Shown here in pieces: positions 15,412-17,916 of a stretch of 64,000 bases of DNA (the stretch's first letter is position 1; each line of letters starts with the position of its first letter). The DNA lies in assembly GCA_004022145.1 (NCBI GenBank), contig RCNU01000001.1, one strand, 5' to 3'. This DNA is from Paecilomyces variotii (taxonomy: Eukaryota). Under the pieces are notes generated by a model. It did not search any database. It saw nothing but the letters and a program-made list of their open reading frames with translations, and was not told the origin of the DNA. The translations under genes were made by a program, and so were the position numbers.

Positions 15412-16038
15412 TTACGTGACAGCCAGAATCCTCTCCACAGACGCGACGTTCCCTTCCATTGGCTGCACTTTGTCCGTCCTACTCGGTGATGTCAAGTTAG
15501 TAAGGGATCTCAGGGGAGCGATCTATTATACAGTTCCCGAAATCGGAAGGTATTCAAAAATCACATACCGGGTGGTAATCCGGATATCAGTCTGGATTCT
15601 CGCTATACCCTGTTGATGAATAAGAGTATGCGCCCATCCAATTACCTGCATGACTTGATCCCAGGGTCCTTCTGAAAGCAATCAAACCACATTAGCAGGA
15701 GTCAAATGTTTGACTGTGAAATATGAAAATGCCGAATTGGAGATCAGAGTGATGGAAGATAGGGGGTAGGAATCCATACCGACCGTAGTCCCTGTCGAGT
15801 GCATCATGAACTTCAGCCCTGTTTGCTGCACGAGTCGTTGAACATCGGCAATTTGTTGGGAGAAGGAGGTTGTTTGGTGTCCTATCTGATTTATTCATCA
15901 GTCTGGTGTCCGTATAAGATGTAAAGACAGCTTCCTAAATGGGACGAGGATCGAAACTGATTGAAGACCAACCGGAATGAGCGAGAAATCAGCCGTGCAG
16001 CGCGCTGGGGTCGCTAAGGCCGGGGCGTTGAATGCCAT
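15412..16038 (-). CDS. ecm15: Ecm15 / UPF0045 thiamine-binding protein family (113 aa); exons 16038-15973, 15885-15780, 15671-15569, 15478-15412
   Basis: Not in the ORF track. Hand splicing gives MAFNAPALATPARCTADFSLIPIGHQTTSFSQQIADVQRLVQQTGLKFMMHSTGTTVEGPWDQVMQVIGWAHTLIHQQGIARIQTDIRITTRTDKVQPMEGNVASVERILAVT*, matching yeast Ecm15 motifs (ADxxxxPIG, HSxGTTxEGPWD, RxxTDIRxxTRTDK). Three GT-AG introns, 342 nt in total. Confidence 0.93.
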
Positions 16039-16548
16039 TTTCTCTATCTCTACCTTAGTATTTGATTTTTCGAACGTAGAGTGTAGTCCAGTATCACGCG
16101 AAGACTGGAGCAGAGATTCGGGCTGTTTTTATTTTGTTTACGAATAAATAAATATACCATGAGCCTCTTGTATAAAACATTGGTGAGTTGTCTGAGATAA
16201 TGACCCCTCAATAGAGCTTGGTAATTGTGACGTAGAGACATAATATGGGATTATGCAGATCTGACGGGAATGGGTAGAGATTACGATTTTTACATGGATT
16301 AGTTACTGCGGGACTAGGATGGATGGAAGTGTGATTGGATATAAGATCGGGAACTCTGAGGTAGAGTAGGGATGGTACAAAGACAAAGCTGAGCAAGGAT
16401 TTATGAGAATGTAGGGGCCGATACTGGCAAAATTTGGCATATTGTTTACGGTGCTGATTATGGAGTTTTCAATTTCGATTATAACATGTGACAGTCGATT
16501 CTCAGTCCAGACCCGAACGGACACGCGCACCCAGTGCACTGATTTAAT

Positions 16549-17916
16549 TTAATAATAGTATGTCTCGTAAGTAGTTCTTCCTCTCATATAAAGAGGCTCG
16601 CTCCCTCGAACGTAAATATCCTGGAAAAGAGTATCCCCTGTGGGCTGCGGTTCTGGCATATTCTCCACTTCCGTCACGGCCTGTTTGATCTTGTCTCTGA
16701 CCTGTTTCTCTAATTCGTCTAGTTCCTCATCTGTGTGCGTTTTCCAGTCGAGGAGTTTTTCTTTCAACATTGGGATGGGATCAGATTCCCGTTTCGATTT
16801 TAGTTCCTCTCGAGTACGGTACCCGATTCCGGGATCAGACATCGAGTGCCCTGCGAAACGGTATGTTTGAAATTCGTATACCAGAGGACCATTCCCGGAT
16901 CTGATATAGTCGCGAGCGTGTTGTACCGCTGCTTGCACGGCGAGGACATCCATCCCGTATACGCGAAGACCAGGGATGTATTGGCCGCGTTTGTAGTAAT
17001 CAGTCGAAGCAGAAGCACGCTCAACGGATGTTCCCATGCCGTAGTGGTTGTCTGGATATCGAATTAGCTGGGTCGATCTAGAAAGAAGAAGTCTTGCAAC
17101 TTACTTTCACAACCATACAAAACCGGCAAATCCCATAATTTCGCCATATTAAAGGCTTCATGGACCTGACCCTGATTCGCTGCACCATCGCCATATAAAT
17201 TGACCGTGATGTTTGGGCTCTCTTGATATTTCTGCGCCATAGCAATACCTGTCCCGACTGGTACAGAGGCGCCGACGATGCCGTTTCCTCCAAAGAACCC
17301 CTCGCGGAACATATGCATCGATCCTCCCTTTCCGTGGGAGATACCATCCTGGCGACCCAGAAGCTCGCCTAGGATCGATTGTATAGATGCTCCACGCATG
17401 TAGGTATTGCCATGCGATCGATATGCAGTTATGAGTAAATCATCCCTTGTGATTCCGTGCTCGATACCAACAGAGACAGCTTCTTGACCGGTTGACAGGT
17501 GGCAGAAGCCGCGGATTTTCTTCTGTTTATATAGAGAATCTGCGGTCACTTCGAGACGTCTGTTCAGGTAAACTGTCAGATAAGTGCCTCATAAAGAATG
17601 TGGAAGAGAAGTACCTTATCGTCAACATGTCATGGTATAACTGCTTTAGGTGATCCTTCGTCGTCTCTAAGTAGTATGGAGGCGGATCGAAATTGTAGGT
17701 TTCGAACGCGTCGTCGTCGAGTGGGACTCGGAATGGTTTATCACTCGCCTATCAATAGATAGCATTAGACACGATATCAGCCCAGGTATAATTGGATCTT
17801 ACAGTAGGAATGTTCCCGATATCCGTCACTTGGGCCAAGTAACGGCGGCCACAGTGCCCTATTATCCTGGGAATCCGAGTAGCTCTGAGAGTGGTCGCTT
17901 GAGTTCTTGAGAACAT
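16549..17916 (-). CDS. pda1: Pyruvate dehydrogenase E1 alpha subunit, probably a divergent paralog (401 aa); exons 17916-17803, 17748-17615, 17559-17105, 17051-16549
   Basis: [24 protein letters not shown]-binding [10 protein letters not shown]…CENNHYGMGT and phospho-loop GHSMSDPG. The Arg-rich N-terminus ([17 protein letters not shown]) resembles a mitochondrial presequence. Confidence 0.95.

Follow-up and report, generated by a model that had tools for sequence, protein, structure and literature searches.

PDH E1-alpha depends on vitamin B1, in the form of thiamine pyrophosphate (TPP). Mammals possess a tissue-specific second alpha gene, PDHA2, for which we know of no Ecm15 neighbour. Ecm15/UPF0045 proteins are small and conserved, and their structures were obtained by structural genomics two decades ago; to our knowledge, they have no agreed eukaryotic function. 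Their bacterial thiamine-binding relatives (TM0486, YkoF) are encoded by genes located in transporter operons.

Our literature search returned a single eukaryotic functional study of Ecm15. In the available part of this preprint, Ecm15 of Cryptococcus neoformans acts with Cac2 in a pathway between cytosol and nucleus, is regulated by starvation and is required for the nuclear localisation of Cac2, while deletion of ecm15 alters growth on poor medium (bioRxiv 10.1101/368738). That part of the preprint ties Ecm15 to Cac2/CAF-1 and to TOR-dependent starvation responses, not to thiamine. Furthermore, according to the available parts of two articles on yeasts, Pdc2, with Thi3/Thi2, raises the expression of pyruvate decarboxylase and thiamine genes in starvation (PMC11304959, PMC10246790). 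This regulon provides a precedent for the co-regulation of a gene encoding a TPP enzyme with thiamine supply genes, but it differs from the locus described here in involving a cytosolic decarboxylase and a dispersed regulon, with no participation of Ecm15 reported in those parts. In the literature searched, i.e. outside subscription journals and supplements, neither the E1-alpha paralog described below nor its pairing with Ecm15 was found.

The locus lies in a 64,000-nucleotide stretch of contig RCNU01000001.1 of Paecilomyces variotii (assembly GCA_004022145.1), hereafter the window. It comprises, from left to right:

13712..14672, plus strand: DUF6594 gene, a flanking gene outside the pair (PF20237 on three consecutive ORFs)
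15412..16038, minus strand: Ecm15-2, a diverged second copy of Ecm15/UPF0045 (PF01910, identity to P0121, RNA joints)
16038..15973 (66 nt), 15885..15780 (106 nt), 15671..15569 (103 nt) and 15478..15412 (67 nt with TAA), minus strand: coding exons of Ecm15-2
16039..16548, minus strand: spacer of 510 bp from the stop of E1alpha-2 to the ATG of Ecm15-2, holding a 3' UTR and a 5' UTR
16549..17916, minus strand: E1alpha-2, a second-copy PDH E1-alpha gene (PF00676, identity to P0001, RNA joints)
17916..17803, 17748..17615, 17559..17105 and 17051..16549, minus strand: coding exons of E1alpha-2 (1206 nt, 401 aa, 4 exons)
17917..18862, no strand: divergent intergenic region between E1alpha-2 and Rad4, into which the E1alpha-2 RNA contig of run X1 extends beyond 18000
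18863..22042, plus strand: Rad4/XPC DNA-repair gene, a core flanking gene outside the pair (PF03835, PF10403, PF10404, PF10405)

A preliminary description of this DNA had reported two intact co-oriented genes 510 bp apart, which is exact: both genes are on the minus strand and their six introns are confirmed by RNA. All six have GT..AG ends; spliced contigs of RNA runs X1 and X6 contain the joint of every one, and those of X2 the joints of five. These joints are 17748/17803, 17559/17615 and 17051/17105 for E1alpha-2 and 15885/15973, 15671/15780 and 15478/15569 for Ecm15-2. Runs X1, X2 and X6 each contain spliced contigs of both genes, contigs showing presence and not level. Run X13 yielded one unspliced, DNA-like 19-kb contig from a related strain, which is uninformative on splicing. 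Within the spacer, the 3' UTR of E1alpha-2 is covered by RNA contigs reaching 16473 (X1) and 16445 (X2), and the 5' UTR of Ecm15-2 by an RNA contig starting from 16076; no spliced-run contig of X1 or X2 covers 16119-16391. In X1, X2 and X6, each gene has RNA contigs of its own, which use exon 1 of Ecm15 and the normal stop of E1-alpha, and no RNA joint links the genes in these contigs. Since the transcripts are separate, the two public gene models that join PF00676 and PF01910, P0002 from P. variotii (472 aa) and P0004 from A. hiratsukae (445 aa), are unsupported. They differ in the point at which E1-alpha is joined and both lack exon 1 of Ecm15, and P. variotii also has stand-alone public models for both genes (P0001 and P0121).

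The E1alpha-2 gene, a second copy of PDH E1-alpha, is intact, spliced and transcribed. The Pfam family PF00676 (E1_dh) is matched by its two large exons with E-values of 1.6e-51 and 4.3e-45; the scores of 175.5 and 154.4 bits exceed the cut-off of 22, and the matches span profile positions 6-159 and 161-299 out of 300. The translation of the gene is identical to the annotated P. variotii protein P0001 at 396 of 401 residues. It aligns end to end with human PDHA1 (PDB 3EXE; E 1.3e-115). As in PDHA1 (3EXE/1NI4), the spliced translation keeps the cofactor motif GDG...NN, the regulatory site-1 serine in HSMSDPG and the site-3 serine in GMGTSVERA; G206 D207 G208, N235 N236 and H303 S304 are invariant across 40 paralog sequences of the E1alpha-2 type. 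Its N-terminus is presequence-like.

The preliminary description had called this E1-alpha divergent, and phylogeny places it in a Eurotiales clade of its own. This clade gathers 76 of the 121 tree rows with an SH-like support of 97, all its named rows belonging to Eurotiales, and it is recovered with an SH-aLRT of 97 by IQ-TREE on 46 rows. Compared with housekeeping E1-alpha, it is separate and evolves faster. E1alpha-2 is not an ortholog of the housekeeping PDA1-type copy: it falls outside the clade that holds P. variotii P0118, and it is identical to the second P. variotii E1-alpha copy at 252 of 395 residues. For both genes of the pair, paralogy was judged from public proteins of the same species. 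Alongside the E1alpha-2 type, a housekeeping-type E1-alpha is listed for P. variotii, A. oryzae, Pen. nalgiovense and Pen. macrosclerotiorum (four cases). Several changes are fixed across the E1alpha-2 clade. Among them are A135T, two changes in the cofactor motif (F216H and S210A) and two in the phosphorylation loop: G301A and T311A/G, the latter with loss of the site-2 hydroxyl residue. For instance, residue 216 is a histidine in 97% of 75 paralog rows and a phenylalanine in 100% of 44 other rows. A metagenome scan with P0001 retrieved 80 intron-free loci (44-54% identity), mostly from marine samples, which we read as bacterial-type and uninformative for fungal synteny; an Ecm15 alignment profile gave no match in their six-frame translations.

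Like its neighbour, Ecm15-2 is intact, spliced and transcribed, and it encodes a second copy of the small ferredoxin-like protein Ecm15/MTH1187. The observation that it is split into four small exons of 66-106 nt and missed by an ORF scan was borne out (342 nt of coding sequence, 113 aa), but the gene is not new since it is annotated in public databases, its translation being identical to the P. variotii protein P0121 at 111 of 113 residues. Exons 2 and 3 match PF01910 (Thiamine_BP) with 26.4 and 31.2 bits against a curated cut-off of 24.9, covering positions 8-42 and 44-75 of the 92 in the profile, and the public orthologs carry the same domain. A profile search reaches Saccharomyces cerevisiae Ecm15/YBL001C (PDB 1LXJ) at E 1.2e-30. 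The AF2 model (pLDDT 78.8; E14-23, H30-42, E47-51, E54-59, H61-77, E82-91, H100-112) predicts the beta-alpha-beta-beta-alpha-beta ferredoxin-like fold of solved family members. With this model, Foldseek retrieves 1LXJ, 2EKY, 1LXN, 1YQH, 1VK8 and 2IBO, all with E<=6.3e-6, and 1LXJ with E 1.3e-11, a TM of 0.78 on the target and 40% identity.

Ecm15-2 shares with bacterial TM0486 and YkoF the ferredoxin-like fold, the Pfam clan and proximity to a gene with a thiamine connection, but identity to these proteins is just 14-19%. The structural matches are 1VK8 (Thermotoga TM0486; E 3.4e-6, 19% identity) and 1S7H (Bacillus YkoF; E 9.6e-3), while by sequence TM0486 fell short of E 0.01. Thiamine binding is known solely for these distant relatives, and a thiamine link of Ecm15-2 would come through the name of PF01910 and the predicted fold. 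Furthermore, unlike the bacterial genes, Ecm15-2 has neither a riboswitch nor a transporter gene beside it, as judged from the Rfam search and the ORFs scanned.

In a tree of Ecm15 proteins, for which residues 386-472 of P0002 served as the search query, Ecm15-2 belongs to a clade A of 30 of the 108 rows (SH-aLRT 94), whose named rows are all from Eurotiales; canonical Ecm15 forms a clade B of 47 rows. Ten species possess both types, including one P. variotii strain (tags _7854 and _4280), whose canonical Ecm15, P0232, is encoded elsewhere. The canonical residues C19, V30, A53, Q70, G90, D101 and K102 (window numbering) are replaced in Ecm15-2 by S, F, T, W, T, G and N, respectively. All 41 canonical Eurotiales rows of clade B and 20 of 24 outgroup rows carry this C-V-A-Q-G-D-K signature, but none of 28 clade-A rows does; outside clade A the seven sites are near-invariant. 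Because these seven residues have changed, Ecm15-2 is a diverged subfamily and not an ortholog of ECM15, although S. cerevisiae Ecm15 belongs to the same family. Hence, neither gene of the pair is a sole housekeeping copy, both being Eurotiales-wide extra copies according to the trees and to the second copies of the same species.

The two paralogs are also neighbours well beyond this lineage. E1alpha-2 and a clade-A-type Ecm15 are linked, by a shared gene model, consecutive tags or contig, in 12 of 12 comparable cases (raw count) from Paecilomyces, Thermoascus, Rasamsonia, Aspergillus and Penicillium, i.e. five genera and three families of the order. Linkage is direct in five cases: the window, P0002, P0004, Thermoascus crustaceus (VTN00DRAFT_5138/5137) and Rasamsonia emersonii (VTN96DRAFT_9919/9920). 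In two others, it is given by a short contig (A. sclerotialis, 13,741 bp; A. hancockii, 122,032 bp). The remaining five (Pen. alfredii, A. ambiguus, A. wentii, Pen. sp. IBT 18751x and Pen. hispanicum) have an equal 'longest contig' figure alone (0.8-4.8 Mb); this large-contig evidence is weak because canonical Ecm15 coincides likewise with E1alpha-2 by contig figure in four of ten species. The parental E1-alpha and Ecm15 genes lie on separate contigs in one assembly each of Bisporella, Rhinocladiella and Aspergillus coremiiformis, and in A. fumigatus the gene of the housekeeping E1-alpha is AFUA_1G06960 and that annotated as Ecm15 is AFUA_4G09900. In section Nidulantes and several Penicillium species, E1alpha-2 is listed and a clade-A Ecm15 is not, which could reflect loss or a missed four-exon gene. 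The locus is a pair of order-specific paralogs that are conserved as neighbours and are transcribed separately in the same direction.

The surroundings agree only in part with the 'accessory-looking segment' of the preliminary description. The left side fits it, with the DUF6594 gene and then a gene-poor stretch with 25% GC at 10-12 kb; the right side does not, since a block of core genes starts directly with Rad4. The DUF6594 gene is convergent with Ecm15-2, whose X1 RNA contig (1820 nt) continues below 15300, and Rad4, with its domains within 20195-22039, is transcribed away from E1alpha-2. No TPP riboswitch was detected in the whole window at the Rfam gathering score, the sole match being a tRNA, or in region 15000-19000 at E<=10, where the only matches are two weak snoRNA-like ones within the Ecm15-2 gene and where the spacer has none. 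Moreover, a domain scan of 31 long ORFs, roughly half of the 66 in the ORF list, shows no further thiamine gene, E1-beta or PDH kinase, small-exon genes being invisible to it. The thiamine module proposed in the preliminary description thus stands as far as the extent of the adjacency and the extra-copy status of both genes are concerned, but the separate RNA contigs, the riboswitch search and the scanned ORFs all speak against a simple module.

The best explanation overall is that the pair has been kept together for joint use, to which we give a probability of about 0.5; thiamine economy would be the likeliest theme. Joint use is suggested because the parental genes are unlinked wherever this can be read whereas the new copies are linked in all comparable genomes. 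Furthermore, substitutions are fixed clade-wide in both copies, which therefore appear to have retained but altered functions rather than to be decaying. E1alpha-2 is likely to be a condition-specific PDH alpha isoform that would partner the ordinary beta subunit in mitochondria, and Ecm15-2 a small cytosolic ligand-binding protein, likely to come into use under the same condition. What the two most plausibly share would be the economy of thiamine or thiamine diphosphate: a thiamine-type ligand would be buffered, sensed or salvaged while the isoform with an altered cofactor pocket would take over. Functional coupling of any kind has roughly even odds, and a link specific to thiamine is more tentative, with the odds against it. 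In its most explicit form, i.e. a Eurotiales two-gene 'thiamine economy' unit in which Ecm15-2 would bind or sense thiamine, HMP or TPP while the F216H E1-alpha would sustain pyruvate oxidation when the vitamin is scarce or damaged, the proposal is unlikely. A complex prediction for E1alpha-2 and Ecm15-2 scored 0.00; run without control pairs, it is counted neither for nor against an interaction.

That the two genes have unrelated functions and that their proximity is a historical accident, left by an old segmental event or insertion and preserved because a 510-bp gap presents a small target to rearrangements, is quite possible, although short of an even chance. A gap of this size would rarely be broken, and the region may be stably syntenic because its right flank is an ordinary block of core genes. 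The separate transcript contigs and the lack of a shared regulatory RNA element in the Rfam searches (window and 15000-19000) fit this explanation, as do the large-contig coincidences of canonical Ecm15. The likely compartments also differ according to our reading of the sequences: the N-terminus of E1alpha-2 is presequence-like, Ecm15-2 has no arginine-rich presequence and is probably outside the matrix that holds E1alpha-2, and the Ecm15 pathway, in the available part of the Cryptococcus preprint, runs between cytosol and nucleus, so that the two proteins may reside in different compartments. However, an accident would require two independent duplicates, both from families annotated with thiamine, to have become adjacent by chance, while the parental copies sit on separate contigs or chromosomes in every case where their positions can be read. 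It must also accommodate linkage in every comparable case across three families and the substitutions fixed in both copies.

Joint use might also have no relation to thiamine. Ecm15-2 would then be a nutrient- or TOR-responsive signalling partner moving between cytosol and nucleus and co-deployed with the alternative PDH subunit when the carbon source or nutrient supply shifts, and any ligand it has would not be a thiamine compound. This explanation, which overlaps with coupling of any kind, is improbable. It draws on the starvation regulation and the Cac2 role of Cryptococcus Ecm15 (bioRxiv 10.1101/368738, available part), a fungal member of the same family with nutrient-dependent regulation, and on the searches that found neither a riboswitch (Rfam) nor nearby thiamine genes (31 ORFs). 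However, that work deals with the single canonical Ecm15 of a basidiomycete and, in its available part, with how a chromatin-assembly subunit is transported into the nucleus, and shows no link to PDH or thiamine, whereas Ecm15-2 is a paralog. Transfer of this function is uncertain because seven canonical residues are lost in clade A, and nothing in the present data links CAF-1 to PDH.

Finally, a single product, either one fused protein or a bicistronic transcript made by read-through, as the two joined database models and the close, co-oriented arrangement might suggest, was rejected as very improbable, given the separate contigs with Ecm15 exon 1 and a normal E1-alpha stop, the absence of any inter-gene joint in X1, X2 and X6, the bare middle of the spacer, the mutually inconsistent fused models and the stand-alone models of the same species.

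Even if the linkage of the pair is neutral, the analysis defines two paralog subfamilies with diagnostic residues and points to fused or intron-retaining public models that should be corrected. A second PDH alpha is notable on its own, since its Eurotiales hosts include industrial, food-spoilage and pathogenic fungi. Moreover, the occurrence across the order of a diverged Ecm15 beside a diverged subunit of a TPP enzyme makes the vague 'thiamine-binding' annotation experimentally approachable, Aspergillus, Penicillium and Paecilomyces being tractable hosts for such experiments. Joint use of the pair in thiamine economy, if true, would provide the first biochemical function for eukaryotic Ecm15-type proteins.

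E1alpha-2, the second-copy PDH E1-alpha gene, and Ecm15-2, the second-copy Ecm15/UPF0045 gene, are intact, transcribed and separately spliced paralogs that are kept as neighbours across the Eurotiales, and each carries clade-fixed changes where its parent family is conserved. The genes per se are not new; order-wide paralog subfamilies with diagnostic residues, or their linkage, were not found in print in the full-text literature (outside subscription journals and supplements). Ecm15-2 is the downstream gene, 510 bp separating the E1alpha-2 stop from its start:

17916..17803, 17748..17615, 17559..17105, 17051..16549, minus strand: exons of E1alpha-2; once joined and translated, a complete frame of 401 aa
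16038..15973, 15885..15780, 15671..15569, 15478..15412, minus strand: exons of Ecm15-2 (66, 106, 103 and 67 nt); complete frame of 113 aa

Both large exons of E1alpha-2 match PF00676 (E1_dh, Pfam; E 1.6e-51 and 4.3e-45), and exons 2 and 3 of Ecm15-2 each score above the curated cut-off of PF01910 (Thiamine_BP, Pfam). Identity to annotated Paecilomyces variotii proteins reaches 396/401 and 111/113, respectively, which assigns the window to this species or one very closely related to it. All six introns have GT..AG ends, and their exact joints were found in spliced RNA contigs: six out of six in runs X1 and X6 and five in X2, since the X2 contig stops at the last intron. Minus-strand reading, joined-exon translation and RNA joints thus bear out the preliminary description of the gene pair to the single base.

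In X1, the Ecm15-type contig spans 15300..16076 and a separate E1-alpha contig runs from 16473 to past 18000; no contig of X1 or X2 lies in 16119-16391 and no joint connects the two genes. Two public models, P0002 (472 aa, P. variotii) and P0004 (445 aa, Aspergillus hiratsukae), fuse them at differing points within E1-alpha, both omitting Ecm15 exon 1. These fusions are unsupported by the RNA contigs, but the models still prove adjacency and co-orientation of both genes in those genomes. The X1 contig of Ecm15-2 (1820 nt) extends about 1.3 kb below 15300, so the convergent Ecm15-2 and DUF6594 genes probably either overlap at their 3' ends or had these ends joined by the assembler. Contigs of another transcript, present in all four runs, match only 16967-16998 and 17307-17345 before continuing in unlike sequence, and most likely represent the housekeeping E1-alpha mRNA. 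In run X13 (a library labelled metatranscriptomic), 15300-16876 is matched by an unspliced contig of 19 kb, with 33 gaps and 52 differences. Its source appears to be a related strain in a food fermentation, present either as DNA or as unspliced RNA.

The E1-alpha, initially called divergent, belongs to a separate second-copy clade found across the Eurotiales. In a FastTree analysis of the window protein and its best 120 database matches, it falls in a 76-row clade (support 97) whose named rows are all Eurotiales (Paecilomyces, Thermoascus, Rasamsonia, Talaromyces, Aspergillus and Penicillium; 14 rows are nameless) and whose sister is Rhinocladiella, on a long branch (support 96). The other Eurotiales clade (10 rows, with Arachnomyces) groups with the ordinary Pezizomycotina copies and includes P. 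variotii P0118, identical to E1alpha-2 at 252 of 395 positions. Four species have both clades (P. variotii, A. oryzae, Pen. nalgiovense and Pen. macrosclerotiorum). IQ-TREE on 46 selected rows gave an identical split (SH-aLRT 97 for the paralog clade), with visibly longer paralog branches.

E1alpha-2 can be aligned with human PDHA1 over its whole length (E 1.3e-115) and retains both the GDG...NN cofactor motif and the serine of HSMSDPG. When 75 paralog rows were compared with 44 other E1-alpha rows (P0094 excluded), 27 sites conserved in at least 90% of the others were altered in the paralogs. For instance, position 216 is F in 100% of the other E1-alphas and H in 97% of the paralogs; further changes are S210A, A135T, G301A, beside the regulatory serine, and T311A/G, which corresponds to phosphorylation site 2 of the human protein. 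Reading of the sequences reveals an arginine-rich N-terminus, as in the housekeeping copy, from which mitochondrial import is predicted as likely.

The main addition to the preliminary description is that Ecm15 also has a second copy across the Eurotiales. Searching with the Ecm15 portion of P0002 initially gave one match per species; a wider profile search then gave two proteins in many Eurotiales. Ten species harbor both types: P. variotii (tags _7854 and _4280 in one strain), Rasamsonia emersonii (_9920 and _3425), Thermoascus thermophilus, Thermomyces dupontii, Penicilliopsis zonata, A. ochraceoroseus, A. ellipticus and three Talaromyces. An IQ-TREE tree of 108 rows, from which 28 of 134 database proteins were excluded as truncated or over-long models, separates clade A (window type; 30 rows, SH-aLRT 94, named rows all Eurotiales) from clade B (canonical type; 47 rows, SH-aLRT 90). 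Onygenales and Chaetothyriales branch off outside the two clades; with only 115 alignment columns, the tree does not order the deeper branches. Seven sites cleanly split the clades: the pattern C-V-A-Q-G-D-K occurs in 41/41 named clade-B rows, 20/24 outgroup rows (the remaining four being one site off each) and 0/28 clade-A rows, clade A having invariably S19, F or Y at 30, and T53. Searches and trees of both proteins, as outlined at the outset, thus place each in a Eurotiales second-copy clade, so neither is the sole housekeeping copy.

The family assignment of Ecm15-2 is firm, resting on a profile match to yeast Ecm15 (PDB 1LXJ, E 1.2e-30) and on an AlphaFold2 model (mean pLDDT 78.8, ferredoxin-like topology) that matches 1LXJ (E 1.3e-11), MJ1052, MTH1187, thiamine-associated TM0486 (1VK8, E 3.4e-6) and, more weakly, YkoF (1S7H, E 9.6e-3). 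Public models of the small four-exon gene are erroneous in P0002, P0004, P0133, P0135-P0138, P0140, P0146, P0149-P0151 and P0154-P0157 (two E1-alpha fusions; elsewhere retained introns, giving junk between conserved blocks, or false N-termini), and some annotations may lack it wholly. Furthermore, P0153 (A. floccosus) and P0242 (A. ambiguus) form a very divergent Ecm15-like pair (stem branch 1.93), clade-A-like at S19 and T90 but canonical at Q70; P0242 and the A. ambiguus E1alpha-2 have a common contig figure of 813,047 bp. This pair may represent Ecm15-2 in a rapidly evolving form.

Linkage was assessed through gene models, locus tags and listed "longest contig" figures in all species listing both E1alpha-2 and a clade-A-type Ecm15. 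The neighbourhood of the two clades, which the preliminary description proposed to look for in many genomes, was found in 12/12 comparable cases, five of them direct:

Linkage of E1alpha-2 and clade-A-type Ecm15
Direct: window, gene pair 510 bp apart
Direct: P. variotii, fused model P0002
Direct: A. hiratsukae, fused model P0004
Direct: Thermoascus crustaceus, consecutive tags VTN00DRAFT_5138/5137
Direct: Rasamsonia emersonii, consecutive tags VTN96DRAFT_9919/9920
Short common contig: A. sclerotialis, 13,741 bp
Short common contig: A. hancockii, 122,032 bp
Equal "longest contig" figure only (0.8-4.8 Mb): Pen. alfredii, A. ambiguus, A. wentii, Pen. sp. IBT 18751x, Pen. hispanicum

The five equal-figure cases are weak because canonical Ecm15 has the same Mb-scale match with E1alpha-2 in 4/10 species (A. 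versicolor, A. sydowii, Pen. cinerascens and Pen. coprophilum, but not A. glaucus, A. taichungensis, A. cavernicola, A. heteromorphus, Pen. antarcticum and R. emersonii). Those four species have no listed clade-A Ecm15; there, the coincidence is due either to chance, the chromosomes being large, or to a differing arrangement in these lineages. The parental types appear unlinked where readable, being on separate contigs in Bisporella, Rhinocladiella and A. coremiiformis. In A. fumigatus, the housekeeping E1-alpha is given as AFUA_1G06960 (PMC6318881) and the annotated Ecm15 as AFUA_4G09900 (PMC11595811), which is described as flanked by conserved hypothetical proteins (bioRxiv 10.1101/2020.12.01.406157).

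Upstream, the pair is followed by Rad4/XPC, transcribed in the opposite direction, and by a run of core genes (BSD-domain protein, Ran-binding protein, HBS1-like GTPase, TSR2, Med13, NOL10, ATG13 and RCC1/BTB protein). Downstream lie a convergent DUF6594 gene and a gene-poor stretch with GC down to 25% at 10-12 kb:

13712-14672, plus strand: DUF6594 gene, three successive ORFs in differing frames, hence introns or frameshifts
6000-13700 (especially 10001-12000): gene-poor stretch, left boundary of the core-gene block, no ORF of at least 130 aa from 6457 to 16549; possibly the relic of a decayed, RIP-like repeat
299-407, minus strand: tRNA gene, 109 nt against a 71-position model (49.8 bits), the extra length suggesting an intron
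15745-15810 and 15940-15982, plus strand: C/D-box snoRNA-like Rfam matches opposite the Ecm15-2 introns, far below gathering score (E 0.44 and 1.4), probably chance

At gathering score, Rfam found only the tRNA in the whole window, and no TPP riboswitch around the pair even at E<=10. No thiamine gene, E1-beta or PDH kinase occurs among the 31 long ORFs scanned (about half of the 66 listed; small-exon genes escape).

Joint use would more readily account for independent duplicates of unlinked parents having come to lie side by side and stayed so, and we give functional coupling of any kind a probability of about 0.5. The main rival is neutral linkage, in which the neighbours would persist because so short a gap (510 bp) is rarely disrupted; we hold this to be a serious but lesser prospect. 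Thiamine is the single theme common to both families, and the thiamine module first proposed for the pair is, as a specific form of coupling, less likely than not. Since Ecm15-2 has no presequence, its sequence suggests that the two proteins are in different compartments. A nutrient-signalling role for Ecm15-2 without thiamine, by analogy with Ecm15-Cac2 as presented for Cryptococcus (bioRxiv 10.1101/368738), is a less likely reading, which overlaps with coupling of any kind. Under functional coupling, E1alpha-2 would be an alpha isoform for a particular condition, partnered with the ordinary beta subunit, and Ecm15-2 would be a small putative ligand-binding protein expressed in that same condition, its ligand being most plausibly of thiamine type.
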